Assembly: GCA_030390025.1 (NCBI GenBank)
Contig: CM059430.1
Coordinates: forward strand, 153,512,001-153,576,000
Direction of reading: 5' to 3'
Length of the DNA: 64,000 nucleotides
Origin: Squalus acanthias
Taxonomy: Eukaryota
Shown: positions 2,931 to 64,000 of the stretch, in pieces
Layout: each line of letters begins with the position of its first letter
How positions within the stretch are numbered: the first letter of the stretch is position 1
Translations under genes and position numbers: made by a program
Notes under the pieces: generated by a model
What the model saw: only the letters and a program-made list of their open reading frames with translations
The model's database searches: none
Told to the model about the DNA's origin: nothing

Positions 2931-3279
2931 CACGGGCAGCTGCACAATTATTCTTATATCTTTGTCAACTCACGGTTTTACTTTAAGGACATCCGATGAA
3001 TTAGGGCTGATGTCCCAAGGGCAGAAGTGTCCGAGTGTTTTGTCTTCTCGGGCAACTTATGTCCATATGATGCAGCCTCGCAGGCTATATATAAAGTTTA
3101 AATCTATGTCCCTTGCATTTGCATATAGCTCAAAATGCTGATGTTAACAAATCTTGGTGTTCTGATTTAGGATTTATCCACTAATGAGGAACAGTGCAGG
3201 GTACAGATCTTTTCAACTAAAAACAGAAGCTGCTGGAAATACTCAGCAGGTCAGGCAGCATCTGTGGAGAGAGAAACAG

Positions 3280-3316
3280 AGTTAACGTTTCAGGGCGATA
3301 ACCTTTCGTCAGAACT
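3280..3316 (-). ncRNA. Minimal type I hammerhead ribozyme motif (PLE family A)
   Basis: Minus strand: AGTT-CTGACGA-A-AGG(TTATCGC)CCT-GAAA-CG-TT-AACT; stem I AGTT/AACT, palindromic stem III ACGT. Confidence 0.8.
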
Positions 3317-5924
3317 GGAAAAAGTTAGAGATGTAACAGATTTAAGCAAGTACAGAGGCAGGGAAAGGGAGGAGGGGAGGAAAGAACAAAAAGGAAGGTC
3401 TATGATAGGGTGGAAGGCAGGAGAGATTAAATGACATAAGGGATAATGGTGCATGGCAAAAGGGGGAGGTAATGGGACAAGTAAAGAAACAAAGATGGGT
3501 CTAGAGGTGTAAATGGGAATATCAGAATCATCACCAGCTGCCGTCCGATATAATGGGGGAAGAGGTTATGATCTGAAATTGTTGAACCCAATGTAGAGTC
3601 CAGAAGGCTGTAAAGTGCCTAATAGAAACATGAGGTGCTGTTCCTTGAGCTTCATTGGAACAGTGTAGGAGGCCAAGGACAGAGAGGTCAAAGAGGGAGT
3701 GGAGCGGAGAATTAAAATGACAGGCGACCGGAAGCTCGGGGTCACTCTTGTGGACTGAACAGAGGTGTTCCGCAAAGCGATCACCCAATCTGCATTTGGT
3801 CTCCCCAATGTAGAGGAGACCGCATCGTGAGCAGCGAATACAGTATACTAAATTGCAAGAAGTACAAGTAAATCACTGTTTCACCTGGAAGGAGTGTTTG
3901 GGGCCCTGGACGGTGGGAAGGGAGGAGGTGAAAGGGCAGGTGTTGCATCTCCTGCGCTTGCACGGGACGGTACCGTGGGAAGGGAAAGGGGTGTTGGGGT
4001 GATAGAGGAGTGGACCAGGGTGTTGCGGAGGGAACGGTCCCTTCGGAATGCTGAAAGAGGAGAGATGGGAAGATGTGTTTGGAGGTGGCGGAAATGGCAG
4101 AGGATGATCCGTTGAATGTGGAGGCTGGTGGGGTGGAAGGTGAGGACAAGGGGAACCCTATCGTGGTTCCGGGAGGGAGGGGAAGGGGTGAGAGCAGAAG
4201 TGCGGGAAATGGAACAGACACGGTCGAGGGCCGTGTCAACCAGGGTGAAGGGGAATCCTCGGTTGAGGAAAAAGAAAGACATATCGGAAGCACTGGTATG
4301 GAAGGTGGCATCATTGGAACAGATGCGACGGAGATGGAGAAACTGGGAGAATGGAATAGAGTCCTTTACAAGAAGTGGGGTGGGAGGAAGCATAGTCAAA
4401 ATAGCTGTCGGAGTCAGTGGGCTTATAGTGGATATTGGTCGATAGCCTATCCCCAGAAATGGAGACAGAGAAGTTGAGGAAGGGAAGAGTCGGAGATGGA
4501 CCATGTGAAGGCGAGGGAAGGGTAGAAATTGGAAGCAAAGTTGATGACATTTTCCAGTTCGGGGCGAGAGCAGGAAACAACTTCAATGTATCGGGAAAAG
4601 AGGTGAGGGAGGGGACCTGAGTAGGAATGGAACAAAAAATGTTCCACATATCCCACGAAAAGGCAGGCATAGCTAGGACCCATACGGTTTCCCTTTTACT
4701 TGGAGGAAGTGAGTGGAGTCAAAGGAGAAGTTGTTCAATTTGAGAACCAGTTCAGCCAGGCGGAGGAGGGTGGTGGTGGATGGGGACTGGTTGGGCCTCC
4801 GTTCCAGGAAGAAGCAGAGAGCCCACAGGCCGTCCTGGTGGGGGATGGTGCTGTAGGGAGATTAGACATCCATGGTGAAAAGGAGACGGTTAGGGCCAGG
4901 AAACTGGAAACTATTAAAGTAGCAGAGGGTGTCGGAAGAGTCACGGATGTAGGTAGGAAGAGACTGGACAAGGGGAGAAAAAATAGAGTCGAGATAGGAA
5001 GAAATCAATTCCGTGGGACAAGCAAAGGCTGAAATGATGGGTCCACCAGGGCAGTCCTGTTTGTGGATCTTAGGAAGTAGGTAGAAGCGGGCTGTGCGGG
5101 GTTGGGGGACTATGAGGTTGGAGATCGTGGAGGGAAGATCTCCAGAGGAGATGAGGTCAGTGACAGTCTTGAAAGCGATTGCATGATATTCGGTGGTGGG
5201 GCCATGCTCCAGGGGGAGGTAGGAGGAGCTGTCCGAAAGTTAGCGTTCAGCCTCCACAAGGTAGAGGTTGGTTTGCCAAACAACAACAGCATCACCATTG
5301 TCAGCAGGTTTAATGACAAGGTTAGGGTTGGAGCTGAGAGAACCGAGTGCTGCAAGTTCAGAGGGAGGTAGGATAGAGTGAGCGAGGGGAGCAGAGAAAC
5401 TGAGATGACCGATGTCATGTCGACAGTTCACAATGAAAAGATCTAGTTCACAATGAAAAGATCTAGAGGGTGAGAGGCCAGATGGAAGAGTCCAGGTAGA
5501 ACAAGAATTCTGAAGATGGGAGAAAGGGTGCGCTGTGCGGGGGGAAGACTCCTGGCCAAAGAAGTGGGCGTGGAGGTGGAGGCGATGGAAGAAGAGCTCA
5601 GCGTCGTGCCAAGCTCGAAATTCATTGCGGTGGGGGCGTAAGGGGGTGAAGCTGAGGCCTTTGCTGAGGACTGATTGTTCGGGGTCAGAGAGGGGAAGGT
5701 CAGAGGGGATAGTGAAAACATGGCAAAGGGAGAGATTGAAAGAAGGGATAGGGTCTGAGGAAAGTGAAGGGGGAGAAGGTTCCGGAGGGGTGTTAATATC
5801 CAAGAGTTGTTGAAGCTTGTGATCCTTGACACCTGAACGGAAGAAAAAAAGTATTTTGTTCAAGCGCCGGATGAGGCGAAGGATGAAATGGAACTGCGGA
5901 TCAGGACAGCTTTGAGATCGAGTG

Positions 5925-6235: not shown

Positions 6236-7530
6236 TGTGAAGGAATAAGCCATATAACCTATTCAGAAAAATACACCATTCTATGAAAGAATTCTGGCCT
6301 TATTAAAACATGACAAACTGGGTTTGGAAATCTGGAAGCCTCAACAATCTAAAGCTGTGATAGCTTTCTGGCTATAGAGATAAGATAGTTGTTGACACTG
6401 AATCAATAACCTTATTGAAACAGAAGGTTAAAGGCTCCCGACAGTCTGAACACCTGTATAAGGTGTTCTAATTTACACTTCGTAAAGAGGCACAAACATT
6501 TGCCTTAAGTAAAAATGACATCAAATAAAATGCACCTGCTGTTACACCGTTTTTTATGGTAAGCTTGGAACACCTAGAGGAGAGACATGATTCTGCATTA
6601 CTACCAGCTGAGGTGACTAAGAATTGCATAGATCACCCTGGTTAAGATGTTCTAATTTACACTTCGTAAAGAGGCACAAACAGAAGGCCTTAGTAAAAAT
6701 GACATCAAATAAAATGCACCTGCTGTTACACCGTTTTTTATGGTAAGCTTAGAATACCTAGAGGAGAGACATGATTCTGTATTGCTACCAGCTGAGGTGA
6801 CTGTAAGAATTGCAGAAGTCAGCAGAAAAATGACTGGAGATAATTAGCTTACATCAGCAGAAAACCTTAAAGGGAATACCACTGGAAAAGGGTATAAATA
6901 TTGAACTTTCAAATGGGATGATAGATTCGCTGTAAAGGGGCAAAGCGATTCTCGGCTTCAGAGACAGCTCTGTAAGTCTACAACTCTTTGTATCTTGGGG
7001 ATCAAAGGTACTGTATTTGATTTTGGTGGATATCCTGAATAAGACTAAGAACTGTAAAACTGTAGCAAAGTTAAGATTTGAGAATAAGGATCTCTGATAA
7101 GATTGTAAAGCTTTCTCTTTTTGGAACTGTTAATGTTGCGATTGACTCACCAACTGTAAAATACATGTCGGTTCTTTAATAAATCTATATATTTTTAGAA
7201 TTGTCTCACATAATACTTCTGTATCAAACTCGCGAACTCAATCTCTGTACGTTCTTTGGTGAGGAGTTGCAGAATTCTGGGAGAGTTTTCTGGACCCTCA
7301 TAATATCCGGAACGTTACAGTCTAGCTAAACTTATTAAAAGTGCTATCTGGAGGACGGTAACATTTTCAGGTTGTTCCTTTCCTTTAGGGAGAGATAGTC
7401 CGGACCTTTAGACCCAATTAAGCGTCTTTAGGATTCGGCTACCTCAAACTTTAGTTGAAAGTGAATGTCTGAGGAATATGCCTGATCCGGGGTAGCCTTA
7501 AAGGGGCTAGGACTAGTAATTATCCCTTCA
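6236..7530 (+). mobile_element. Solo LTR (1295 bp)
   Basis: TG...CA termini (TGTGAAGG...CCCTTCA), 4-bp TSD AGTT on both sides, TATAAATA at ~6893, AATAAA at ~7178, internal ~185-bp tandem duplication; the host PLE resumes after it. Confidence 0.75.
6461..6813 (+). repeat. ~185-bp tandem duplication inside the LTR U3-like region
   Basis: TGTTCTAATTTACACTTCGTAAAGAGGCACAAACA...GAGGTGACT..AAGAATTGCA occurs at ~6464 and ~6648. Confidence 0.9.
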
Positions 7531-8449
7531 AGTTGATGCTGCTGAAGAGAGAGGTCAAGAGCGCGCACGTGATGGTGCATGGCGTTGAGTGTGGATCTCA
7601 GGATGCGGCGAGAGCAGTGGTTTGAGGAACGCTGAATATCTTGGGAGATATCTGTAATCATGGGCGGATCCGAAACATGAAGGGTGGAATTTCAGTTGGA
7701 ATCCACATGGAATAAGTCAGAGCTGGAGACAGTTGCTGAGGAAAGAGATGTGGCTGTGAAAGCGAGTTTGGTAGATACTTGCTCAAATGTTCAGGTTCAT
7801 GAAATTCAAATAGGGCAACCAGTAAGTAAAAGTTATTAGCGTAAATAAAACTGAGTCACTGGCTTTGTGGGGCAGATTACCACTGCTCAAAAGGTCATAA
7901 ATGGTACATAGGTTGTAGTTTGGACAGCCCTGCCCTAGGGCAAGGCAGATATCTCCAGGTAAGTCTAATGGCTCTAAGATAGGATGAAAGCCATGTCTAT
8001 GAAAATCATACAATAATTAGCATACCTCCTTTCTGTGATTCCACTTAGAACTGAAATGGTTGGATTTATTCAATGTACAGAATAAAAAATTTGAAAACTT
8101 TATAAATAATGAATAAATAATTTAAAAAACAACTGAACAAAAAAATTGTTATAAAACATGGTAAAAAGAACAATTTCCTGGTCCATTTTGGACAGCACTT
8201 GTTTCTGGGCATTTTCTGTAACACCCACACTCATTCCACAAAATGGACATGAGGTGAATTGATGCCCCGTATTCTATTTAACAGTGTGATTTACATACTT
8301 TTCTTCTATATTATTACATGGTAGGGAGGAAAATGTAAGATGTGCATATGTTTAGAATTGCACACATCTAAGCCCCTGTTAGTGTGTGTATAAATCCAGG
8401 CGAATTTGGAAAGACGGAATGGGTAGCACAGCTTCCGCCAAATACCTAA

Positions 8450-8653
8450 ATGAGAAGTCGCACAACACCAGGTTATAGTCCAACAGTTTTATTTGAAATC
8501 ACGAGCTTTCGGAGCGCTGCTCCTTCGTCAGGTAGGAAGGAGCAGCGCTCCGAAAGCTCGTGATTTCAAATAAAACTGTTGGACTATAACCTGGTGTTGT
8601 GCGACTTCTAATGTTTGTCCACCCCAGTCCAACACCGGCATCTCCGCATCATG
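8450..8653 (+). mobile_element. Foldback mini-PLE (family B) with hammerhead
   Basis: 74-bp inverted arms 8453-8526 / 8536-8609 plus a ~44-bp tail ending CATCATG; TSD GCCAAATA(C/T)CTAA at 8437-8449 and 8654-8666. Confidence 0.9.
8499..8534 (-). ncRNA. Hammerhead ribozyme motif (family B), short stem I
   Basis: Minus strand: TAC-CTGACGA-A-GGAGC(AGC)GCTCC-GAAA-GC-TC-GTGA. Confidence 0.7.
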
Positions 8654-9629
8654 GCCAAATATCTAAGCAGCTTTTCAAATTAATTTTTGTTGAAAAGTAC
8701 CCTTCACTGCAACACTTCAAAAATAAATAGGTAAAACTGCAGAATTTTGAAATTTAAAGTACAAAAGGTCATGTAAACCATGGAGCTGCAATCATAGAAA
8801 CTGGTGGAGACAAACGTAGGACAGCAGCAAGATACAGCCTCTGGTGTGGAGAGATAACAGACCTTACCCAAACCAGATGACAGCAAAATTCATTTCAGTG
8901 ACAATCAGAGAAAGCCATCTTAAATGATTCAGAACAGAGACACAGCAATCAGGTAAAGTAGGCTGAAAACATTCATTTATGACCTTTCATGCCAATGTTT
9001 GGTTATTTTCATATTTTTGGTTGGCATATTAAAGCTGACATGAAGAAAAAACACATCCGTATTAGTGGTACTTTGAATTATTATTCTTAGACATGAGGGG
9101 TCTTTATTTTGCTTTTGTGATGTGATTATAATTCACTGGTAATTACTGAAGAAAGCAGTTCTATGAGAAACAGATGCTGCTGAAACCTGCCAACCTGGGA
9201 CTCCGTGCAAGAGAACCTCAAAAACCTTGATCTTCAGTGCTAGGATCAGCATTATTCCAAGAGGCATGCTGCAGTAACGTTTTCGAATCACTTCAAACTG
9301 CCATAGAACATGGGCACAAGTTCACAACAGAATTCTTCGCACACTGAGCTTTTGATCCCACGTGTGCTGTCGTGAAGATGTATTGGTGAGCACAGGCTCT
9401 TCTCCCGCAGAAGAGAAGTTAAATTACAGGGAGTCATTCCACTGGGTTGCTCTTGTACATCTCCTGGTAATTGATTTCTGAACAACATTAGCAGATACCC
9501 AGGGGCAGATCACCCATCTGCCCTCAAATATGTGACACAAGGAGACTCAAGACAGGGAAACCAAAACAAGCATCATAAAAGAAGAGAATTTTTGCCCTTC
9601 GAAATGTAATTAAAATAAGAGTATGCATG

Positions 9630-10010: not shown

Positions 10011-10989
10011 AAATATGCACGTCCACCCTGTACAGTCATCTTTCTGCGACTGCAAAACGGCTGAATTTAAATCCTAATCTCAGTTTGGAATCGAGCTCAG
10101 ATTTGTATTAGAGATAAAGTGGACAAAGAAATATTTGCAGCTAGGACTATCCTCCCTAGAGGAGATGTCTATGAACCATACTCTTCTTCCCTTCTCTTCA
10201 AGTGAGAAGTGTATTTGGACTTGACCACCTTATCCTCCAGAACAAGCACAGATGCTGTGAATAGGGTTGGCTAATTTATGGGCAGAATATAGAAATAAAT
10301 AAAATATTTAAAATAAATGGGCTTATTTAGTCAGTGACAAGTGAAAGGATAAAAATTCAAAAGCTCTTCTTTGGTCAGATACATGAAAACAGAACAGCCC
10401 AACAACACTGGGAAGGGAGTATTACCATCTCATTTTAATGAGCAGATGACTTATAAATGGATAAAGCTAAAGGAAAGAAAAAAAATACATTTAAATTTAA
10501 AGATAAACAGAACATCTGGAGCACAGCTCACAAAGCAGTGAAAAATGGGATTGAGTCCAACTGAAAAATCATAACTACATGGCAATCTTAAAGACCCTTG
10601 GAACTGTAGTCATGAATATTGTAGAACATGCATTTTTACTAAAATACACATTATATACATGTAAGTTGTTAAGATGAGTGCCTGATATATTGAAGCAGGA
10701 AAGTAAGGAGCAAAGGTACAATATTACTGCATGATTCAAGAACTGTACCAGTGCTACTGGTTGTGGTTTTGGAAAAAAACTCAACAACTGAGTTAGAAAT
10801 ACATGAACTTGTATAAGACAATTAAATTTTATTGCCTTTGAGAAACAGGTTTTATCAACCAGACATCATAAAAACCTCAAAAAAGTTCCTGAAAGTACAG
10901 ATGAAAGTACTTGCCGAATGAGGTAGTTTAATGTAAATGTGAAATTCTTCGCTCACTCTGTTGAATGCCATTCAGAAATGCAGCAGGTG

Positions 10990-13347
10990 GTGATAGAACC
11001 AACATGAGGGAAAAACCTACTGACCTCGTCCTCACCAATCTACCTGTCGCAGATGCATCTGTCCATGACAGCATTGGTAGCAGTGACCACTGCACAGTCC
11101 TTGTGGAGACAAAATCTTGTCTACACACCGAGGACACCCTCCATCGTGTTGTGTGGCACTACCACCGTGCTAAATGGGATAGATTCAGAACAGATCGAGC
11201 AGCTCAAAACTGGGCATCCATGAGGTGCTGTGGGCCATCAGCAGCAGCAGAATTGCATTCCACCACAATATGTAAACTCAGGGCCCGGCATATCCCTCAC
11301 TCTACCATTACCATCAAGCCAGGGGACCAACCCTGGTTCAATGAAGAGTGCAGGAGAGCATGCCAGGAGCAGCACCGGGTGTACCTAAAAATGAGGTGCC
11401 AACCTGGGAAGCTGCAACACAGGACTACATGCATGCTAAAAAGTGGAAGCAGCATGCTATAGACAGGGCTAAGCGATCCCACAATCAACGGATCAGATCA
11501 AAGCTCTGCAGTCCTGCTACATCCAATCGTGAATGGTGGTGGACAATTAAACAACTAACAGGAGGAGGAGGCTCCATGAATATCCCCATCCTCAATGATG
11601 ACAGAGCCCAGCATGCGAGTGCAAAAGACAAGGCTGAAGCGTTTGCAACCATCTTCAGCCAGAAGTGCCGAGTGGATGATCCATATCGGACTACTCCTGA
11701 GGTCCCCCCATCATAGAAGCCAGTCTTCAGCCAATTTGATTCACTCCACGTGGTATCAAGAAATGGCTGAGCACACTGGATACAGCAAAGGCTATGGGCC
11801 CTGACAACATCCCGGCTGTCGTGCTGAAGACTTGTGCTCCAGAACTAGCCGCACCTCTAGCCAAGCTGTTCCAGTACAGCTACAACACTGGCATCTGTCT
11901 GACAATGTGGAAAACTGCCCAGGTATGTCCTGTCCACAAAAAGCAGGACAAATCCAATCCAGCCAATTACTGCCCTAACAGTGTACTCTCAATCATCAGC
12001 AAAGTGATGGACGGTGTCGTCGACAGTGCTATCAAGCGGCATTGACTCACCAATAACCTGCTTACCGATGCTCAATTTGGGTTCCACCAGAACCATTCGG
12101 CTCCAGACTTCATTACAGCCTTGGTCCAAACATGGACAAAAGAGTTGAATTCCAGAGGTGAGGTGAGAGTGACTGCCCTAGACATCAAGGCAGCCTTTGA
12201 CTGAGTGTGGCATCAAGGAGCCCTAGTAAAATTGAAGTCAATGGGAATCAGGGGGAAAACTCTCCACTGGCTGGAGTCATACCTAGCACACAGGAAGATG
12301 GTTGTGGTTGTTTGAGGTCAATCATCTCAGCCCCAGGATATCGCTGCAGGAGTTCCTCAGGGCAGTGTCCTAGGCCCAACCACCTTCAGCTGCTTCATCA
12401 ATGACCTTCCCTCCATCATAAGGTCAGAAATGGGGATGTTCACTGATGATTGCACAGTGTTCAGTTCCATTCGCAACTCCTCAGATAATGAAGCAGTCCA
12501 TGCCCGAATGCAACAAGACCTGGATGACATTCAGGCTTGGGCTGATAAGTGGCAAGTAACAATCGCACCACACAAGTGCCAGGCAATGACTATCTCCACA
12601 ACATGCGAGTGTCTAATCACCGCCCCTTGACATTAAATGACATTACCATCGCTGAATCCCCCACCATCAACATCCTGGGGGTCACCATTGACCAGAAACT
12701 TAACTGGACCAGCCACCTAAATACTGTGGCTACAAGAGCAGGTCAAAGGCTGGGTATTCTGCGGCGAGTGTCTTACCTCCTGACTCCCCAAAGTCTTTCC
12801 ACCATCTACAAGGCACAAGTAAGGAGTGTGATGAAATATACTTTACTTGCCTGGATGAGTGCAGCTCCAACAACACTCAAGAAGCTTGACACCATCCAAG
12901 ACAAAACAGCCCGCTTGATTGGCACCCCATCCACCACCTTAAACATTCACTCCCTGCACCACCGGCGTACCGTGGCTGCAGTGTGTACCATCTACAAGAT
13001 GAACTGCAGCAACTCGCCAAGGTTTCTTCGGCAGCACCTCCCAAACCCGCGACCTATACCACCTAGAAGGACAAGGGCAGCAGGCGCATGGGAACACCAC
13101 CACCTCCAAGCTCCCCTCCAAGTCACACGCCATCCTGACTTGGAAGTATATCGCCGATCCTTCATTGTCGCTGGGTCAAAATCCTGGAACTCCCTCCCTA
13201 ACAGCACTGTGGGAGTACCTTCACCACACGGACTGCAGCGGTTCAAGAAGGCGGCTCACCACCACCTTCTCAAGGGCAATAAGGGATGGGCAATAAATGC
13301 TGGTCTTGCCAGCGACGCCCATATCCCAGGAATGAATATAAAAAAAA
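10990..13347 (+). mobile_element. 5'-truncated non-LTR retrotransposon (CR1/L2-related clade), degenerate ORF2
   Basis: Endonuclease end (DLVLTN..IGSSDH), MGPDNIPAVVLK, DKSNPANYCP, GVPQGSVLGP, FTDD RT motif; 3' end AATAAA...A-rich tail; many stops and frameshifts. Confidence 0.92.
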
Positions 13348-13759
13348 CTGTGACTGGTTGGATCTAAGATGCCACATAATAAAAAAAAGGGCCTGTTAGT
13401 CAGAGACACTTTGACTACTACTAGAAGGTCACCACTATATATTTTCAAATTATAATATATTACTAGTTCTAGCTCTTTAATTATTAGAATTTTGATTTGT
13501 TTACAGTAGTTATGCTAATTGTTAGAATTATATTTAAAGGGGCATTCTCTTCATGAAACTAAATTTGGTCATTTTTATTCAGGTTGTGGGAAAAGAGATG
13601 AGCCAGAAAAGACATGTGTCATTGTAGTATTTTAATACTATTAATATGGCAGTGGTGGTCTATTTTTAAGTGATTTATCCCACAGTGTTGTGTGTTCCTA
13701 ATCAAATATAAATAGACTTGTCACTTTTTGCACTGGTTTCTTGTACTTTTCCTTAATGG

Positions 13760-24941: not shown

Positions 24942-25732
24942 ACATAGAAACATAGAAACATAGAAGATAGGAGCAGGAGTAGGCCATTCGGCCCCTCGAG
25001 CCTGCTCCGCCATTCGATGAGATCATGGCTGATCATCTAAACTCAGTACCCTGTACCTGCCTTCTCCCCATATCCCTTGATACCTTTAGCTTTAAGAAAT
25101 ATATCTAACTCAACCTTGAATATATTTAATGACTTCGCCTCAACTACCTTCTGTGGTAGAGAATTCCACAGGTTCACCACTCTCTGGGTGAAGAAATTCT
25201 TCCTCATTTCTGTCCTAAATGGTTTACCCGTTATCCGTAGATTATGACCCCTGGTTCTGGACTCTCCGACCATCGGGAACATTCTTCCTGCATCTAGTTT
25301 GTCCAGACCTGTCAGAATTTTATATGTTTCGATGAGATCCCCTCTCATTCTTCTATACTCCAGTGAGTATAAGCCCAATCGACCCAATCTCTCCTCATAT
25401 GTCATTCCTGCCATCCCAGGTATCAGCCTTGTGAATCTTCGCTGAACTCCTTCCATGGCAAGAACATCCTTCCTCAGATAAGGCGACCAAAACTGCACAC
25501 AGTACTCAAGGTGTGGTCTCACCAAGGCCCTGTACAACTGCAGCAGGACATCCCTGCTCCTATACTCAAACCCTTTCGCTATGAAGGCCAACATACCATT
25601 TGCCTTCTTCACCGCCTGCTGCACCTGCATGCTTACTTTCAGCGACTGGTGCACAAGGACACCCAGGTCTCGTTGCACTTCCCCTTCTCCCAATCTATTG
25701 CCATTCAGATAATAGTCTGCCTTTCTGTTTTT
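24942..25732 (-). mobile_element. Young CR1 LINE 3' fragment
   Basis: Uninterrupted 216-aa ORF2 C-terminus (LVRPHLEYCVQFWSP...NFFTQRVVNLWNSLP); (CATAGAAA)n tail. Confidence 0.92.
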
Positions 25733-26694
25733 GACATGTCAATGTCAACACAATATTGATATCTACTCATTTTTGCTTGCAAGCAAGGAAAGAAAATAGA
25801 TATGTGCACTGCTATATTTGCAGGATCTTTTATTGCGTTTTTGGGAACTTTTACTAAAGATCTACCATGCCGGGAAAGATTGGCTGGATGACAGTTAGTA
25901 CCAAGTAAATCTTTCCTGTATGTGCTTCTCATTAAACAACTAGCAAAACTCAAAAAATATCCAATGCTACCTACCCTGATCAGTAGAGGGCAAGAGTGTA
26001 CCATTCTCAGATAATGGTATTGCTATCCTAAAAATGCAAAACATATTCAAGCCTTTTTTTTCCAAATTTTTCCCTTCTTTTGAGGGCAGTGACTCATGCT
26101 GGGCACAGTTCCATGGGCACCTGAAGTTCTTGGGTATCTTGTCTAAGTGGCCTTCCTTCACATGAGACTAGACATTGAGTCCTGACTCTCCATCTCTTAG
26201 AATGTGGGGTTGGAGTCTGGCCTTAATGGCAATTCAGTGCTCTTTATAGCAGATGTCACCAGTTGACTTTTCCCTTTCCTAACCCAGAACACTAAAGGCA
26301 ATTGCAGTGGCTTGGCACTAGCCAAACGGTGATCAGCAAAGATCAGAAATCAATCCTGTAGGAGGAGGTTGGTGTCAATGTGATCTATTTCATAGAATAA
26401 TAAAAAGTTTTAAAAATAAATCTTAAACAATATGTGCTGCAGAGTTGGAAGAGATGCTGAGTTGGCACTGATGTACTGGAGACACCAGCCAAACAGGTGG
26501 AGGACAAGGAGTTCATCTGGAATACTGTCACTGTTTGATTGGAGTCTCAGGAATAGGAAATGAAAGGGAGGGCAGATGATTTTTTTCCAATATGAAGAAA
26601 TATTAAGAAGAGAAATATATATTAAATTATATTTTTAAAATGTGGAAAAATTAAATTTAAAAATTAGAACATTATTGGTTTGTAATGAGAAAGA

Positions 26695-28712: not shown

Positions 28713-29042
28713 TCAAACCTCTCCTCCAGAAACAAAAAGTTAACTACTCTTGTAACAGTGATTCCAGAGTTCTCCAGAGACACACACAGACTATTGAAAT
28801 TCAGCAATCACACAGCACTCACTGATATACTGGAAAGCTCTACGAATCAGTAACAAATCACTAATTTCATTAACTATCTTTTATAAATGATGTGTACTCT
28901 TAAAATAATAAAACTGTAACTTAACTTAAAACATTAAAAGAACCTTAACAACTTAAATTAAAATTGTATTCCCGGGCGTGATGATGATAAATTATGAGAA
29001 GTCGCACAACACCAGGTTATAGTCCAACAGTTTTATTTGAAA

Positions 29043-29079
29043 TCACAAGCTTTCGGAGCGCTGCTCCTTCGTCAGGTGA
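29043..29079 (-). ncRNA. Hammerhead ribozyme motif (family B), intact
   Basis: Minus strand: TCAC-CTGACGA-A-GGAGC(AGC)GCTCC-GAAA-GC-TT-GTGA. Confidence 0.82.
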
Positions 29080-29268
29080 AGTGAAGGAATACAAAATCGA
29101 CAAAGCATATATAGATAGAGAACAATGCCTGTGTAACTTACAATGGCAGACGACTACATTTAATCCTCCTGACTGTTTAAATGATTAAATGTAGTCCTCT
29201 GCCATTGTAAGTTACACATGCATTGTTCTCTATCTATATATGCTTTGTCGATTTTGTATTCCTTCACT

Positions 29269-29306
29269 TTACCTGACGAAGGAGCAGCCGCTCCGAAAGC
29301 TTGTGA
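29269..29306 (+). ncRNA. Hammerhead ribozyme motif (family B)
   Basis: TTAC-CTGACGA-A-GGAGC(AGCC)GCTCC-GAAA-GC-TT-GTGA. Confidence 0.8.
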
Positions 29307-29649
29307 TTTCAAATAAAACTATTGGACTATAACCTGGTGTTGTGCGACTTCTCACTTTTGTCCACCCCAGTCCAACACCGGCATCTCCGCATCATGATAA
29401 ATTATGTGTAACTCACTTCCAGGGATCTGTCATTTCCTTTGCAACACGCCCAGAGATCGTTCTTTCTCGATATAATCTTCTCCTGAGGTCAGATCATACT
29501 CTGTGTAATTCATTCCTCGAGTTCTGTGAAATTCACTCCCAGACATTTGTTATTCTCTATACAACTCACTCCCAAGGATCTATCATTCTTCATGCAACGC
29601 CTTCCCAGTCATTATATTTATACATAAAAAAGGACGTGAATGCTGACAA

Positions 29650-31594: not shown

Positions 31595-32251
31595 TAAGTA
31601 ACATTTGTGCCACACAAGTCCCAGGCAATGACCACCTCCAACAAAAGAAAGTCTAACCACCTCCCCTTGACATTCAATGGCATTACCATCATTGTATCCC
31701 CCTCCATCAACATCCTGGGGGGTCACCGTTGACCAGAAACTTAACTGGACCAGCCATATAAATACTGTGGTTTCAAGAGCAGGTCAGAGGCTGGGTATTC
31801 TGCGGTGAGTGTCTCACCTCCTGACTCCCCAAAGCCTTTCCACCATCTACAAGGCACAAGTCAGGAGTGTGATGGAATACTCTCATTTTCCCGGATGAGT
31901 GCAGCTCCAACAACACTCAAGAAGCTCAATAGCATCCAGGACAAAGCAGCCCGCTTGATTGGCACCCCATCCACCACCTTAAACATTCACTCCCTCCACC
32001 ACCGGCGCACCGTAGCTGCAGTGTGTACCATCTACAAGATGCACTGCAGCGACTCGCCAAGGCCTCTTCGGCAGCACCTCCCAACCCCACGACCTCGTCC
32101 ACCTAGAAGGACAAGGGCAGCAGGCGCATGGGAACACCACCACCTCCAAGTTCCCCATCAAGTCACACACCATCCTGACTTGGAAATGTATCGCTGCTCC
32201 TTCATTGTTGCTGGGTCAAAACCCTGGAACTCCCTCCCTAACAGCACTGTG
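31595..32251 (+). mobile_element. LINE fragment of the same family as 10990-13347
   Basis: Near-identical to 12555-13212 (MSAAPTTLKKL...ARLIGTPSTTLNIHSLHHRRTVAAVC). Confidence 0.9.
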
Positions 32252-33040
32252 GCCAAAGAGAAAGAGATTGGCATAAATGGAGAAACAGCAGTGGAAGAGA
32301 AAGACAGCTGTGAAGGAGGAGAAAGGGACACGCACGAATGAAAGCGGAGAAAGGACGAGAGATGTCAATAACAGAAACAAAGACAGAGGTGAAATGGCAT
32401 GGTTGGATGATTCCAAGAAGTATAAAATAGACTGGGAGTTGGAGGTGACTAATCATGATTTTGCCGGACTCAGAAGTAATCTAATCATATTTGACCCACT
32501 CACTAGTTGAGGCGCACAGATGTAGTTCACTGCGCTTCAAAGTTGGAGACCCTCACAGGCAGCAGAGAGAAGCAGTCGTCTCCCGTCAACCTGGCCTAGA
32601 GTCAAACTCAAGACCCAGAACAAAATGATAGTGTTTTACTCACTGTGACACTGGAGACCTAACTCACGTTGTCTAGTAAACTGGGAGGAGATAGTTCCCA
32701 AATGCTTAGTTTTTTTTTAAGATCCTGGTTACTGTGCAACACTTTAAAGATCTATCCTAATTGTTTATATTGTTTAGATAAATATTTACAGAAAACTAGT
32801 AAACTCGGTTTAAAGTCCCCGTCCTATACATCGTATTCTCTGAAAACTTTTTTTTTACTTAAGGTTTCCTTAAAATGTAATGGTTGTTTGCTGTTCCCTG
32901 AATTTTACCTCTATTTAGTAAATAAAATAATAGAGTATGTTCTGTCGCCATATATATTCAAGATGTCCTCGTAATGTGAGCAGCATCATGAACAATAAAC
33001 ATTTGGAACATTCAAAAGATCGCCTGACTATCACGATTAC

Positions 33041-36191: not shown

Positions 36192-38008
36192 ATGGATTCA
36201 CACAGACAGAAGGGCGTGCCAAGATTCCCTGATGCCTCCCTGGAAGTGCTGGTCCAGGGAGTCAGAGCACGCAGGGAGGTCCTCTTCCCTGCAGATGGAC
36301 GCAAAAGACCAGCCAGAGACACTAAGAGGGCATGGCTGGAGATCGCGGAGGAGGTCAGCAGCAGGGATGTCGTGAGGCGGACGTGGATCCAGTGCCGCAA
36401 AAGATTCAATGATCTCATGAGGTCAGGAAAGTTGAGTGCAATGCCACATTCACCTACATCCTGATGCGTGTGTCACCTAAACCTCATCACTGTGCCATCC
36501 CAAGCCTACTCCTGCACATCATTCCTCACACCAACCCACCTTACAGGTGCACCCATCCCTCTCTGTCTGTGCACCTACTCACATCCCCATCTGACTAACC
36601 ACCACTGGCACTCGCCCTCATCCTAATGCAATCAGAGCAAGTAACACCACAGAAGGAAGCTATTTGGCAATGTCACACCACTCCCTTATAGCCGCCCTCT
36701 ACAGATGTAGCCCATTCATTCCTTAAATTCATTCCATCACTCTCACTCAAAGTTCTCTTCTTTCCCTCCTTGCAGGAGAAGGGAGCCCAGAACAACAGGG
36801 AGAGGCAGAGAACCGGAGGTGGCCCTCCAATATTCACCAATTTGACTCCAGCAGAGGAGGAGGCATTTGAAATCTCTGGCGTTGCAGAGCTGCTGCCAGT
36901 GGGAGACAGAGAGAGGAGGACCTCCCAACAACCTGGTGACAGAATTAAATCTCATACAGCCACATGGGATACAACAGTCACTCATGGTGACTGATGTCAG
37001 CAGCCAGTGAAATGTCATCATGTGCATAATGGTAACGTTACACATTCTTATCATAAGACTTCTAATTCATCTCTTTACTCTACCACAGGTCCATCAAGTG
37101 CCCCCGCCACTGTCCAGCCAGAGGAGGAAGACAACTCCTCAGAGGAAGCTCCAGTCTCTTAGGGTGCACCATCACTATACCCATGTGCACCCAGCTCCAG
37201 CGCAGATATGTGCACGTCGGTAGGTCCTGCGAGACATAGAGTAGTGTTGTCACCTGGTGTCTCACAAATCACAAGTGAGCAAGAGCAGATGGTGGAGACA
37301 GGGACAGCACTGGAGAGTCCTGAGCTGCATGCAGATGCTGAACCTCTGGGGTCATTGAGAAAGAGGGTGATCTTGGAGGAGCAGCAACAATTGCATGAGG
37401 CTCTGGCAGCTTTTGCAGCCGTGACGTATGCGAATGTACAGAGAATGGAGGAGTCCATCTCCAACATGAGCACCACCATCTCGCAGGCGATGGTGACGAT
37501 GTGCTGTTACATGGAAAGGATGGCCACCTGCATCGAGCAGCAAATGCGCCAGTCCAACGAGAACATGCTTGCTGTGAACAATAGATTGCAAACGCTCATT
37601 GACCTCATCTCGAAGGGGCATACTAACGTAGACTTGGATGTTCATCACCCCTCTGATGTGCAGCAAGATGCTCTCCAGTTCCTTGCTAGCAGGGAAGGGC
37701 GGGTGGTCCATGAGAGGGATGATGGCGAGAGGGGACATGGAAGTGGGGGCTCTTCTTAAAGCTCTCCCACTTCTCCCCCGTTACCTCCCCCTCGGTCAGA
37801 GCCCCACACGCTGCCTCGGATCCCGATGGGTGAGTCTGTCCCTGTACCGTTGCAGGAGGAGCAGTCTTTGGCAGAGCCCTCACAGGTTCCAAAACCCAGA
37901 GGATGTCTGCCAAAAGTGTCTAAGCAGTTGCAGCAGGGAAGTGAGCAGCCTGCCTCTACCTCTGCTGAAGCCACTGTGGCTGCACCTCGTAGAAGCATGC
38001 GTAAATGA
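36192..38008 (+). pseudogene. Harbinger Myb/SANT-like DNA-binding protein, 3 exons (~36192-36430, 36776-36935, 37089-38008)
   Basis: RFPDASLEVLV..AWLEIAEEV..RTWIQCRKRFNDL; exon 2 NNRERQRTGGGPP; acceptors TTGCAG (36775) and CCACAG (37088); in-frame stops. Confidence 0.8.
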
Positions 38009-38321: not shown

Positions 38322-39550
38322 TTACGTAAATCGAGCTATTATGAGGCCATCCCGGGCCTCCCAGGCAGCAATGTGCGCCGCTGCTGGTGCCATCTCCATC
38401 TCAGGTTCCTCCACCTCCTCCTCCTCATGTTCCACCTGTTCCTCTTCCTCCAAAGAGTTTGTGCGCTCTGTGCCTTGCTCCTCCTGTAGCTCCAATCCTT
38501 GCTGCTGTGCTATGTTGTGCAGCGTGCAGCATACAACAATGATTCTGGAGACCCTGGCTGGTGAGTATTGAAGGGCTCCTCCAGATTCGTCAAGGCATCT
38601 GATGCGCATCTTCGTCATGCCGATTGCTTGCTCTATGACACATCTGGTGGGCATGTGGCTCTCATTATAGCGCTCCTCGGCCTCATTGCTTGGCCTTCTC
38701 AATAGTGTCATCAGCCACGTCTTCAGTGGATAGCCCTTGTCTCCAAGCAGCCAGCCGGTAAGTCTGTTTGGAGGTGCAAAGAGCTGAGGGAGGGTGGACT
38801 GGCACAGGATGAAAGAGTCATGACAGCTCCCTGGGAATCTGGCGCACACATGCTTGATGATCTTTTTATGGTTGCAGACGAGCTGCACATTGAGGGAGTG
38901 GAAGCCCTTCCGGTTCACAAACACTCCTGGTAGATCTGGGGGTGCCTTGGTGGCCACATGTGTGCAGTCGATGACACCCTGCACCTGTGGGAAGCCAGCC
39001 AGAGCTGTAAAGCCGCGTGCCCGCTCAGTAACACGGGCCTCATCAGTGGCAAAGTGTACATAATTGGCTGACTTGTGAAGCATGGCATTGGTCACCTGGG
39101 TGATGCATCTGTGGGCGGCCGACTGCGAGATCCTGCAAATGTCTGCTGCAGATCCCTGAAGGAACCTGAAGTGAAGAAGTTGAGGGCGGTGGTGACTTTG
39201 ACAGCCACTGGTAAGGCATGGCCACCAGGTCCTCTGGGCAGCAAGTCTTGTTTCAGCAAGCTACAAATGTCTGCGCCGACCTGGTGCGATAGCCTGAGCC
39301 TCCTGAGGTACTGCTGTTCGGTCATGTCAAGAAAGCTTATCCTCTGCCTGTATACACTGTGTTGGGGGTATCACCTCCAGCGCAGTGCACTCCTGCGCTG
39401 ATCCTCTCTCTCCTGTGGAGCTTCAGGTCGGTGAGGAGAAGGCTGCTAGTGTGGTTGCTGCTGCTGCTGGTGTGGCTGGTGTTGTTGGTGCTGGGGCTCA
39501 TCTTGGTCCATTTCTGAGGTCCAAGGTGAGACAGCATAAGCGGCACCCAT
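38322..39550 (-). pseudogene. Harbinger (HARBI1-like) DDE transposase, frameshifted
   Basis: [60 protein letters not shown]; N-terminal pieces are in other frames. Confidence 0.92.
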
Positions 39551-43954: not shown

Positions 43955-45394
43955 ATCACTACAGACTTCTTACAGAAACTCAGCACCCACGGACCAGTTG
44001 AACCAGGAACACTCCTCGCCACGATGGACGTATCGGGACTCTACACCAGTATCCCCCACGATGACGGCATCACTGCGACAGCCTCAGTACTCAACACCAA
44101 CAACAGCCAATCTCCAGACGCCATCCTACAACTCATCCGCTTCATCCTTGACCACAATGTCTTCACCTTCGACAACCATTTTTTTACCCAAACACACGGA
44201 ACAGCCATGGGGACCAAATTCGCACCCCAATACGCCAACATCTTCATGCACAAGTTCGAGCAAGACTTCTTCACTGCACAGGACCTCCAGCCAACGCTGT
44301 ACACCAGATACATCGACGACATTTTCTTCCTTTGGACCCATGGCGAAGGATCACTGAAAAGACTACACGATAACATAAACAAGTTCCATCCCACCATCAA
44401 ACTCACCATGGACTACTCCTCAGAATCGGTTTCATTCCTGGACACACGAATCTCCATCAAAGACGGACACCTCAGCACTTCACTCTACCGCAAGCCCACG
44501 GACAACCTCACGATGCTCCACTTCTCCAGCTTCCACCCTAACCACGTTAAAGAAGCCATCCCCTATGGACAAGCCCTGCGAATACACAGGATCTGCTCAG
44601 ACGAGGAGGAACGCGATGGACACCTACGGACGCTGAAAAACGCCCTCGTAAGAACGGGATATGACGCTCGACTCATCGATCGACAGTTCCGACGGGCCAC
44701 AGCGAAAAATCGCATAGACCTCCTCAGAAGGCAAACACGGGACACAACCAACAGGGTACCCTACGTCGTCCAGTACTTCCCCGGAGCGGAGAAACTACGC
44801 CATGTTCTTCGCAGCCTTCAACATGTCATCGATGACGACAAACACCTCGCTAAGGCCATCCCCACGCCTCCACTACTTGCCTTCAAACAGCCGCCTAACC
44901 TCAGAAGTACCATCGTTCGCAGCAAATTACCCAGCTTTCAGGATAACAGCGACCACGACACCACACAACCCTGCCATGGCAAACTCTGCAAGACATGCCA
45001 GATCATCAACACAGATACCATCATCACACGTGAGGACACTACCCACCAGGTACATGATACATACTCATGTGACTCGGCCAACGTTGTCTACCTCATACGT
45101 TGCAGGAAAGAATGCACCGCGGCATGGTACATCGGCGAGACCATGCAGACACTGAGACAACGTATGAACGAGCACCGCGCAACAATCGCCAGGCAGGATT
45201 GTTACCTCCCAGTCGGGGAACACTTCAGCAGTCAAGGACATTCAGCCTCGGATCTGCGGGTAAGCGTTCTCCAAGGCGACCTTAGGAAAACACGACAACG
45301 CAAAATCATCGAGCAGAAACTGATAGCCAAGTTCCGCACTCATGAAGACGGTCTCAATCGGGATCTTGGGTTTATGTCACGATACATGACGTGA
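43955..45394 (+). CDS. Penelope-like RT + GIY-YIG endonuclease ORF (family B), 5'-truncated but uninterrupted
   Basis: TMDVSGLYTSIP, GTAMGTKFAP, RYIDD, FLD, YRKPT, C-x2-C, VVYLIRC..WYIGET..RMNEH, GLN; the first ~30 aa of the called ORF come from flanking Harbinger DNA. Confidence 0.95.
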   Translation: MTTDFLQKLSTHGPVEPGTLLATMDVSGLYTSIPHDDGITATASVLNTNNSQSPDAILQLIRFILDHNVFTFDNHFFTQTHGTAMGTKFAPQYANIFMHKFEQDFFTAQDLQPTLYTRYIDDIFFLWTHGEGSLKRLHDNINKFHPTIKLTMDYSSESVSFLDTRISIKDGHLSTSLYRKPTDNLTMLHFSSFHPNHVKEAIPYGQALRIHRICSDEEERDGHLRTLKNALVRTGYDARLIDRQFRRATAKNRIDLLRRQTRDTTNRVPYVVQYFPGAEKLRHVLRSLQHVIDDDKHLAKAIPTPPLLAFKQPPNLRSTIVRSKLPSFQDNSDHDTTQPCHGKLCKTCQIINTDTIITREDTTHQVHDTYSCDSANVVYLIRCRKECTAAWYIGETMQTLRQRMNEHRATIARQDCYLPVGEHFSSQGHSASDLRVSVLQGDLRKTRQRKIIEQKLIAKFRTHEDGLNRDLGFMSRYMT

Positions 45395-45704
45395 TCCGGA
45401 CTCGAGTCGTCGTTGGCTTGTTCTCAGATGTGATTCCCAGTAAAAAAGTAAAAATTTTAAAGTTAATCGTTTTACATACAGACGGCAGCTTTTGACACAT
45501 TCGACCCCATGCGATTCCACCTCATTGTCTCAGTTGTATCTTGCTATGTCTTTGATGTGGTACCTTCCTGGCTGACCTGATTAACTTTATCACACCTCGG
45601 CAGATAAACAGTCAGGATGATTGAATTCAGTGGTCTGCAATTGTAAGTTACACATGCTTTGTTCTCTATCTATGTATGCTTTGACGATTCTGTATCTCCT
45701 CACT

Positions 45705-45742
45705 TCACCCGACGAAGGAGTTTTAACTCCGAAAGCTTGTGA
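45705..45742 (+). ncRNA. Hammerhead motif in the PLE 3' UTR (core U4 to C)
   Basis: TCAC-CCGACGA-A-GGAGT(TTTA)ACTCC-GAAA-GC-TT-GTGA. Confidence 0.7.
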
Positions 45743-45968
45743 TTTAAAATAAAACTGTTGGACTATAACCTGGTGTTGTGCGACCTCTCATCATATGTAT
45801 GACAGCCGAACTTGATCTATGCAACTCAAATACTTGTATAAGTGCCTGGCTAAAGTGACTTAAATTATCATCCATGTGGGCAAAATGATTTAAATTTATC
45901 TGATTAATAAGGGCCAACTGATCAGTAATGGTCTGGGTATTTATGGCCTACTGATTAAACAGATTAAT

Positions 45969-48553: not shown

Positions 48554-48983
48554 AACAACAACAGAAAACGCTGGAAAAACTCAGCAGGCCAGGCAACATC
48601 CGTGGAGAGAGAAACAGAGTTAACGTTTCAGGTCGAAACCCTTCGTCAGAACTGAGAAAAAAGCAGGAAATGAAACAGATAAAAAAGCAAGGGGGAGGCT
48701 GGGGGGAGGAATAACTATGGTAAGTAGAGACATTAAGAGATGCTCAAGGCAAGACGAGATGGTAATGGGACAGGTTAAGAAACAAAAGGTGGCTAGAAGT
48801 GTGAAGTGTGAAATGCTGGCAGAATGAGAGACAGCTGCCATAGGGGGAGAGAGAGAGAAAAAAAGGAAAAAGGCACGAACCAAAAGGGTGGATAAAATGT
48901 ATATATATATATATATATATGTGTGGTAGGGGCAGAGGTTATGATCTGAAATTGTTGAACTTTGAGTCCGGAAGGCTGTAAAG
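48554..48983 (-). mobile_element. 5'-truncated PLE family A insertion
   Basis: 13-bp TSD TACTATGCATAGA (48541-48553, 48984-48996); ORF end TLQPSGL as in 3566-3808. Confidence 0.9.
48618..48653 (-). ncRNA. Hammerhead ribozyme motif (family A) with UUCG loop
   Basis: Minus strand: AGTT-CTGACGA-A-GGGT(TTCG)ACCT-GAAA-CG-TT-AACT. Confidence 0.82.
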
Positions 48984-50859: not shown

Positions 50860-51773
50860 CGCCCTGAAATTCGCCTCTCCGGCTTGCCGCGGGGGTAAGG
50901 ATCGCGCGCGCACTTACCTACCGCTCCTGCCGTTGTGTTTTGGGCCCACGGGAACTTCAGCTCCTGGGCCTGCTCCAACTGCCGGTGCGCAGTGCTTGCG
51001 TGTCCCAGGGGCGCAGTTAGTGCGATGCGTCCCCTGGGATCACGTGGGCCATGGAGAGCCAATGGCAGCAGACCATCTTTCATTCATAGATTTGACAGGA
51101 GACCTGTCAAATCTGTGAATTGAAATCGGCCCCAAAAGAACAGCTAAACTTAAAATAAATTAAAAAAAACCATCACATTTATAAAATAACTATAGTTAAA
51201 TAAATTAACCACTTTAAACAAAAATTTAAATTTTTGAAAAAATTAAAATACTTTTTAAAATTGATAAAAATAAACTTACCTTTCTTTAAAGTATCTAAAA
51301 AAGATATACCTGTTGAAATGTTTTTTAAATTATACTTAATTAACCACTTACTTTGTTGAAAACGGCTCCTGTGCCTCCTTTTTATTAACTTTTGCTAACT
51401 TACCTGACGAAGGAGCGAACTGCTTCGAAAGCTTGTAAAATTAAATAAATCTGTTGGACTATAACCTGGTGTTGTGCGACTTCTCATTTTTGTCCACCCC
51501 AGTCCAACGCCGGCATCTCCACATCATGTCCTTTTTATTAGCGTAGGTTCTTCACTACTTACCCTCCCGTAGAAACCTGAAAAAAAATCTAAGTTTGCTG
51601 CGTGCGTGCAGCCTCTAGCGCGCACGCGGTTCACCTAGGAATCGCCCCTTCACCATACCGGAAGTTCCGGTTTCCCGCGCATGCGCAGTGCACGCAGGAA
51701 ACTGGCACTTCGGGACGCTTTACGGGTGAGTACGGACTGTGTACTCACCCGGGAAGGGCCGAATTTTTGGCCC
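50860..51773. mobile_element. Harbinger/PIF-type MITE, copy 2, carrying a mini-PLE insertion
   Basis: Near-identical to 15763-16526; flanks GAT/AAT. Confidence 0.88.
51388..51528 (+). mobile_element. 141-bp mini-PLE (family B): hammerhead + pLTR end + tail
   Basis: 12-bp TSD TCCTTTTTATTA; absent from MITE copy 1; TTAC-CTGACGA-A-GGAGC(GAACT)GCTTC-GAAA-GC-TT-GTAA at 51400-51438. Confidence 0.92.
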
Positions 51774-62579: not shown

Positions 62580-64000
62580 GGGCAGAGCACGGAGCACCAC
62601 GGGAGAGGCCTGAGGAGTTGAAACAGGGGCGACGGCGGCAGATTGGGGGAAAAAGGAGCGGAGAGGCAAAAAAAAACCAAGGAGTGACATCACAGGACAG
62701 CAGGTAGGTGATTGGTTGGTGAGTATTACAGCGTTTTTTTCCTCTAAGGTAGACAGTGGTTTAAACTAAGAGATGGGGAACTATAACTATTACTTTATTA
62801 AATCAATAACTTAACTAGATGAACTAGTTAATTAATATAAATATAAATAATCATTTGAATAAAAACTTTAAACTAATTAAATTAATTCAGGTTATCAATC
62901 AGCAAATACATAAAAGAAATTCTAGAGATGGCAGGGCAGGCTATGTGTCGGGACTGTAGTATGTGGGAGTTCGTGGACAGCGAGACCGTCCCGGATTCCC
63001 ACATCTGCAGGAAATGTCTCTGCCTTCAGTCACTCTGGCTCAGAGCCATTGAGCTGGAGTGCGAGTTAGAGACACTCCGAAACATAAGGGAGGAGGCGGA
63101 ATTTCTGGACAGTTTTATCCAGAATACAGTCACACCCCAGAGGAAAGCACAGGTTCAGGAAGGGGAGGGTGTGACTGTTAGGGAGCTGGGTAGCGTGGAC
63201 TTAGGAGAGGTTGAGAAGGAGGTCCCGCAGACACTGGTACGATAGCAAAATACTGCGGATGCTGGAAATCCGAAATAACAATAGAAAACGCTGGAAAAAC
63301 TCAGCAGGCCAGGCAGCATCCGTGGAGAGAGAAAGAGAGTTAACGTTTCAGGTCTGATGAAAGGTGATCGACCTGAAACGTTAACTCTCTTTCTCTCTCC
63401 ACGGATGCTGCCTGGCCTGCTGAGTTTTTCCAGCGTTTTCTATTGTTATCCCGCAGACACTGGTCCTGTCCAACAGGTACGAAGTACTCGCTACCTATGA
63501 GGACAAGGAGAAAGACTGCGGGGAGGACAGCCACAATGCAGACCGAGGCACCATGGCTCAGAAAGCTGTCCATGGGAGGGGGGAAGAGCAGAATAGAAAT
63601 GCGGTAGTGATAGGGAGTTCCATAATTAGAGGGATAGATAGAGTCCTCTGCAGCCAAGATCGAGAATTCCGAAGGGTGTGTTGCCTACCTGGTGCCAGGG
63701 TAAGGGATAAGTTGAGGCGACTGGAGAGGAATTTGGAAAGGGAGGGGGTAAATTCAGTTGGCGTGGTTCATGTCGGAACAAACGACATAGGTAGGAACAG
63801 GTAGGAGGTCCTGCTGAAGGAGTATCAGGAGTTATCAACTAAATTAAAAAGCAGGACCTCGAGGGTAATACTCTCTGGATTATTGCCCAAGCCACGTGCA
63901 AATTGGCATAGAAGCAGACAGATCAGGAGAATTAACATGTGGCTAAAGGGCTGGTGTGAGAAAGAGGGGTTCCTTTTCATGGGACATTGGCACCAGTACT
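62580..64000 (+). mobile_element. CR1 LINE 5' UTR and ORF1 (zinc finger + SGNH esterase), continuing beyond the window
   Basis: MAGQAMCRDCSMWE..HICRKC; VVIGSSIIRG, CLPGARVRD, VVHVGTNDIG; ORF1 interrupted at 63239-63448. Confidence 0.88.
63239..63448 (-). mobile_element. Foldback mini-PLE (family A) inserted in CR1 ORF1
   Basis: 80-bp inverted arms 63275-63354 / 63370-63449, ~36-bp tail on the left, 16-bp TSD TCCCGCAGACACTGGT; hammerhead core CTGATGA-A-AGGT(GATCG)ACCT-GAAACGTT at the loop. Confidence 0.92.

Follow-up and report, generated by a model that had tools for sequence, protein, structure and literature searches.

The 8.4-kb locus of the 64-kb window (the whole 64,000-nt stretch that was analysed; labels such as 8.4-kb and 29-kb give a position in it, not a length) raises the question of whether a short, folded-back insert with a hammerhead motif is a mobile ribozyme element in its own right or a product of ordinary retroelement insertion. 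Very probably, the insert is a one-off, doubly 5'-truncated two-cDNA product of a shark Neptune-type Penelope-like element (PLE).

Structure of the insert

The locus comprises the following features.

8437-8449: left target-site duplication (TSD), 13 bp, one mismatch against the right copy
8450-8653: short folded-back PLE insert, 204 bp
8450-8534, minus strand: 85-nt untailed arm in inverted orientation; it holds the PLE 3' end, which runs back from the internal start site immediately ahead of the tail and stops 3 nt short of the hammerhead core
8500-8534, minus strand: minimal type I hammerhead found by motif scan, sited in the untailed arm
8527-8535, plus strand: foldback loop, 9 nt, of which 8 nt belong to the inverted arm and one G (8535) is extra
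8536-8653, plus strand: tailed arm, 118 nt; begins at core G8 and lacks a whole ribozyme
8613-8653, plus strand: PLE tail, 41 nt, A/C-rich
8654-8666: right TSD, 13 bp

An earlier note on this DNA had described a TSD-flanked 204-bp insertion, and the boundaries at 8450 and 8653, between 13-bp duplications with one mismatch, confirm this. A repeat of at least 12 bp with at most one mismatch occurred in 0 of 3000 random flank-pair draws over the same search space, in which flank pairs closer than 300 bp were skipped. The inverted repeat is perfect over 74 bp (8453-8526 / 8536-8609), the length given in the note, and extends to 77 bp with one substitution (8450-8526 / 8536-8612). The note's tail of about 44 nt is indeed present on one side only; its length is 41 nt given the 77-bp arm. 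Alignment to the hammerhead core also agrees with the note in that the left arm ends 3 nt past the core and the right arm begins inside it: the junction reads position -3 before C3 of the core (8534), the extra G (8535), then G8 of the core (8536). Six-frame translation gave short open stretches at most, in keeping with the note's view of a non-coding insert, and the content is the 3' untranslated end of an element only. One private base at the cut site is common to both arms.

The folding energy of the whole insert is -151.4 and -161.9 kcal/mol for the two strands (z below -20). The isolated arms and tail fold no better than shuffled sequences (z -0.17 to -0.93, six sequences), and thus no conserved tail stem-loop is claimed.

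The parent element and family A

Self-BLAST placed the insert sequence at three other sites in the window: 28994-29396, 51388-51528, and 45791, where a long copy ends. These copies, with the insert, are referred to here as family A.

43958-45791, plus strand: long 5'-truncated parent copy with RT, CX4CxxC linker and GIY-YIG, then the same 3' end without the tail
28984-29406: sister foldback with arms of ~186 and ~216 nt, a different junction and a 13-bp exact TSD
51376-51540, plus strand: solo tailed copy whose 5' end falls about 6-10 nt ahead of the core; exact TSD of 12 bp

The insert end matches 45707-45791 at 88-94% identity, downstream of an ORF ending at 45394. In the parent copy, Pfam recognizes an RT (RVT_1) at E 6.5e-09, above the cut-off, and a GIY-YIG domain at E 4.6e-04, below the cut-off; homologs of the parent protein carry both. 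The protein is 91% identical to one from Heptranchias perlo and has close matches in Mustelus, Scyliorhinus, Chiloscyllium and Hemiscyllium, and based on these homologs across several sharks the parent is a shark PLE family. A CX4CxxC linker motif lies at 44972, before the GIY-YIG. A CX2-5CxxC linker in this place is described in PMC8557442 as absent from Penelope and Poseidon and as a mark of Neptune or Nematis; by its linker, which Nematis also carries, the parent would be classed as Neptune-type. The PLE origin that the earlier note had proposed is therefore upheld, as the insert shares its end with a long copy encoding RT and GIY-YIG.

Two end points are fixed across the family. Untailed arms end at one base in all three cases (the 8.4-kb insert, 28994 and 45791), the tail being absent from each, and the three tailed arms end at one base 41 nt beyond the untailed end point. 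The TSD of 13 bp at 8.4 kb compares with lengths of 12, 13, 13 and 16 bp at four of the eight other PLE loci. For the long copies at 45 kb, 3.2 kb and 2.4 kb the TSD search returned weak candidates only, so their 5' ends are approximate. In 4/9 PLE loci of the window the 5' end lies within about -10 to +16 of the hammerhead core, two of these ends being approximate. Clustering of this kind has a crude post-hoc P of 0.03 to 0.0004, which is no more than suggestive of a hot spot of 5' ends at the core.

Inverted 5'-truncated copies, one-sided tails, TSDs and small-offset head-to-head junctions are known PLE traits according to PMC8557442, PMC3846280 and PMC8969392, and the earlier note was right to read the inverted end and tail in this way. 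With EN+ PLEs of the Neptune clade, as described in PMC8557442 and PMC3846280, the parent copy shares RT, CX2-5CxxC linker and GIY-YIG, and the likeness extends to 5' truncation, an inverted 5'-truncated copy adjoining the 5' end and a short variable TSD. The tail of 30-40 bp on one end of those elements corresponds to the 41-nt tail at one end only of the 8.4-kb insert, and the head-to-head junction of Pen2a_Av, offset by 15 bp (PMC3846280, PMC8557442), has its counterpart in an offset of a few nucleotides here. The 8.4-kb insert differs in that its two pieces are very short, at 85 and 118 nt, and retain nothing beyond the end of the element, and in that its junction falls inside the hammerhead core. 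It is a very short example of a documented PLE architecture.

A second PLE family in the window

The window holds a second PLE family at five loci, with about 30% protein identity to family A. Pfam recognized no family in two fragments of this element, and tblastn with homologs identified it as a decayed PLE. A long decayed copy (about 3215-5704, minus strand) retains RT, CX4CxxC and GIY-YIG in shifted frames. The family also includes a foldback.

63223-63464: second-family foldback with 80-bp arms, a 15-nt loop inside its hammerhead, a 36-nt tail and a 16-bp TSD

The arms of this foldback are 100% identical over 80 bp and have two private changes in common.

A long near-perfect inverted repeat with a TSD could also point to a DNA element of the MITE type, or to a palindrome that arose later, through DNA repair once the insert was in place or through an assembly error. 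We give this reading hardly any weight, since the arms are the 3' end of a retroelement and the tail is one-sided, TSD length varies from 12 to 16 bp across five loci, solo copies exist, the arms differ from each other at one position, and the same geometry is found in the second family.

Two further observations concern the ends of these elements. On the minus strand of the second family (3312-3330 and 48649-48670), hammerhead stem I is directly preceded by a pyrimidine tract with CAG at its end, which resembles a 3' splice site; PMC4209133 mentions an intron of Drosophila Penelope that ends at helix I. The tails of the two distant families (8613-8653 and 63239-63274) have a short CATC...CGCA motif in common near their 3' ends, which is possibly part of an RT start signal.

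A minimal hammerhead motif in the untailed arm

The hammerhead claimed by the earlier note is present as a predicted minimal type I motif. Conserved core, stem II, palindromic stem III and stem I are all found in the minus-strand motif at 8500-8534, with the core at 8531-8525, a stem II of 5 bp (8523-8511) and GAAA at 8510-8507. Stem I has only 3 bp, one of them G.U, and the palindromic stem III can form in a dimer only. Based on this alignment, the cut site would fall between 8503 and 8502. The motif scan returned five stringent matches in the window, all within PLE ends, and none in each of 30 simulated sequences; the stems are kept with different sequence in the second PLE family. An Rfam scan of the whole window (E<=1) reported no hammerhead family and only microRNA-type matches on other hairpins. 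The 63223-63464 foldback is among the sources of such spurious microRNA matches.

The motif resembles the minimal hammerheads described in PMC4209133 in lacking a real helix III, with a palindromic 15.2-16.2, and in having an extra base between 9 and 10.1 and a G10.1-C11.1 pair. Its stems are shorter than those in that account (stem I 3 bp against 4-5, stem II 5 bp against 7-8 in Schistosoma). PMC4209133 ties dispersed hammerhead motifs to truncated PLEs and already reports such motifs paired on opposite strands, 100-700 bp apart. In contrast, the whole core lies in one arm only here, and the motif halves are less than 10 nt apart. According to the same source, minimal PLE hammerheads need a dimer, and the monomer did not cleave.

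Within the hairpin the ribozyme fold is strongly disfavoured by the folding model. Missing from the plus-strand tailed arm are C3-N7 and the 5' strand of stem I. For the full transcript the model predicts a pair probability of 0.0 for stems I and II, and forcing these stems costs 49.9 kcal/mol; in the isolated arm the predicted probabilities are 5% for stem II and 0.2% for stem I. By these calculations the hairpin suppresses the predicted ribozyme fold by about 50 kcal/mol.

A native 6-bp inverted repeat at 29260-29285 has one half upstream of stem I and the other where the core ends and stem II starts. Pairing between them would be an off-state fold of the hammerhead.

A probable two-cDNA origin of the insert

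The insert consists of the element's 3' end in two head-to-head pieces, flanked by 13-bp TSDs; each piece is anchored at one of the two fixed end points, which are separated by 41 nt. In the reaction that we propose, the PLE RT-endonuclease would cut both target strands 13 nt apart, one cDNA would be primed at the tail end and another at the internal site before the tail, and both would stop after about 85-120 nt. The template RNA would not have been cut by the hammerhead, because both arms read through the cut site. The native 6-bp inverted repeat around the hammerhead core would then let the untailed cDNA fold back and copy itself, and the snap-back sense strand so made would pair with the tailed cDNA, repair closing the insertion.

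A biochemical precedent exists in the Poseidon element PAc of Anolis, whose protein cuts and extends both target strands, with two start sites that delimit the tail and uncleaved RNA serving as template (PMC11167929). Such a two-strand, two-start-site reaction accounts for the two cDNAs, the two fixed ends and the TSD; cleavage is not needed, which matches the read-through of the cut site here. None of the six family-A arms ends at the ribozyme cut site, so cleavage is not what sets the 5' end, in line with the uncleaved template of PMC11167929. PAc belongs to a different clade from the Neptune-type parent, and its ORF begins in stem II; the relevant parts of PMC11167929, which deal with Poseidon and not Neptune, give no strand difference in start-site use and do not model the inversion.

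In L1 twin priming, both target strands prime cDNA, which leads to an inversion inside the TSD. In L1 each cDNA comes from a different part of the RNA; here both would come from the same part, hence the hairpin.

How the two pieces came to be joined is the less certain part. The untailed arm extends further 5' in all three foldbacks of the two families (by 8, about 12 and 15-17 nt), a pattern for which a crude post-hoc estimate under independent truncation is 0.003 or less; the foldback rules rest on these three cases. Snap-back from the tailed cDNA alone was ruled out, as it predicts the opposite asymmetry. Each sister arm has a single site (1 in 186 nt and 1 in 216 nt) at which a perfect 6-bp inverted repeat encloses a loop of 3-20 nt, and the 3' half of this repeat begins at +5, the exact start of the 8.4-kb tailed arm. 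Against snap-back, the sister sequence predicts a loop of 12 nt, against 9 nt in the insert, 8 of which match, so this step must assume a source variant or a later loss of 3 nt. The overlap at the 63-kb junction is only 2 nt, and the 29-kb junction offers no testable overlap (the reference is only 87% identical). On balance we regard the snap-back step, taken alone, as an even call.

The same PLE product could form with no snap-back if two RTs worked on one RNA, the tail-primed RT trailing by 8-17 nt, and the cDNA ends were end-joined. This would explain why in 3/3 foldbacks the offset is small and points the same way, why the arms share private bases (one at 8.4 kb, two at 63 kb), and why each family-A junction carries a single extra base. 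It does not predict a junction on the only native 6-bp inverted repeat, however, and at 29 kb the two arms disagree at a position that is variable across the family, which suggests two template molecules or a later mutation. We consider a trailing RT possible but rather unlikely; both it and snap-back lie within the two-cDNA claim.

Outside that claim, self-priming could have taken place on an antisense RNA template, as proposed for the head-to-head ends of rotifer PLEs (PMC3846280). In that scheme the folded-back antisense strand serves as primer for a sense copy that reaches through the tail, and resolution of the ends falls to the endonuclease. The same asymmetry and the same use of a native inverted repeat are predicted. 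However, with RNA that crosses the pLTR-ORF junction as template, target-primed synthesis in vitro begins exactly at the two boundaries of the tail, as reported in PMC11167929, and untailed solo copies with TSDs (for example 48554-48983) require no fold-back, which leaves antisense self-priming improbable in our judgement.

The inversion step is without explanation in those parts of the PLE literature that were surveyed, and the locus is of value for what it records of the PLE insertion reaction. In the literature searched, mostly open-access papers, no description of shark PLE foldbacks or of the junction rule was found.

The unlikely case of retrozyme-like propagation

The earlier note had gone further and proposed a minimal unit of ribozyme plus tail, retrozyme-like and perhaps independently mobilisable. 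The ribozyme and the tail are never sense on one strand, the motif being on the minus strand and the tail on the plus strand, which speaks against the proposed unit. As described in PMC7229834 and bioRxiv 10.64898/2026.07.22.740005, retrozymes consist of units repeated head to tail, carry two or more hammerheads on the same strand and release monomers and circles; minimal hammerheads need two in tandem (PMC4209133, PMC7229834). The 8.4-kb insert resembles non-LTR retrozymes in being small, non-coding, hammerhead-bearing and derived from a PLE end, but it is head-to-head with one whole motif, in an inverted layout, and no tandem second ribozyme or tandem array was found at the locus. The retrozyme comparison thus fails on architecture.

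Nor do the junctions favour independent mobility. The junction of the sister foldback at 29 kb lies about 100 nt further upstream than the 8.4-kb junction, which occurs once in the 64-kb window at up to three mismatches. The note had suggested that junctions shared between loci would mark a propagating family; applied to the 64-kb window, this comparison could be made with a single sister foldback, which does not share the junction (0/1). Exact-pattern scans of a collection of bacterial and archaeal genomes gave 0 matches and are uninformative on the shark genome. Because the 8.4-kb junction coincides with a native snap-back site, it could arise more than once by independent events; with such a junction hot spot possible, shared junctions alone would be no proof of propagation, and shared private changes would also be needed.

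For a self-propagating hairpin moved in trans by the PLE protein it can be said that the tail and the two RT start sites are all present in the plus-strand transcript, that insertion in trans is reported to need no more than pLTR sequences (PMC3846280), and that a short unit of such size recurs (4/9 loci have 5' ends near the core). The unique junction, the lack of tandem ribozymes, the ribozyme and tail on opposite strands and the predicted suppression of the ribozyme fold all tell against it, and the internal start site would be buried in duplex, with no source of a defined 5' end. We therefore judge such a hairpin very unlikely. An equally slim chance attaches to a variant in which the 6-bp repeat hot spot yields unit-sized hairpins, some of which would be transcribed and re-inserted whole by the PLE protein, giving a head-to-head non-autonomous family unlike tandem retrozymes. 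In a weaker form, snap-back at the ribozyme would set the junction rule without propagation; this is more likely than a propagating family and a plausible reading, if one that we would not quite put at even. The locus alone is ordinary PLE debris and not a new self-spreading ribozyme element. The product would be an inert hairpin, at most a source of dsRNA if read through.

Implications and other features of the window

With three foldbacks in 64 kb, shark genomes seem to be dense in such inserts. The window suggests two testable rules, namely that the untailed arm always extends slightly further 5' and that junctions favour native micro-palindromes near the hammerhead, and a genome-wide count of foldbacks could separate the snap-back, trailing-RT and antisense self-priming models. 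Near-perfect 77-bp hairpins would be RNA-editing substrates if transcribed; heavy editing of Penelope in a lizard is reported in PMC5625713.

A connexin gene lies at 1275-2204 on the minus strand (Pfam E 3.8e-98), and if it has a long upstream intron, the foldback could be transcribed from its minus strand. A DDE_Tnp_4 transposase-like ORF (38322-39260, minus strand; Pfam E 9.8e-32) adjoins a second ORF at 37163-37759, and we take the pair to be Harbinger-like. The long ORFs at 10965-13367, 25043-25738 and 31745-32341 presumably represent LINE reverse transcriptase ends, which they resemble; Pfam recognized no family in the two of these that were searched. At 6459-6814 there are two tandem copies of a 184-bp unit, with 93% matches.
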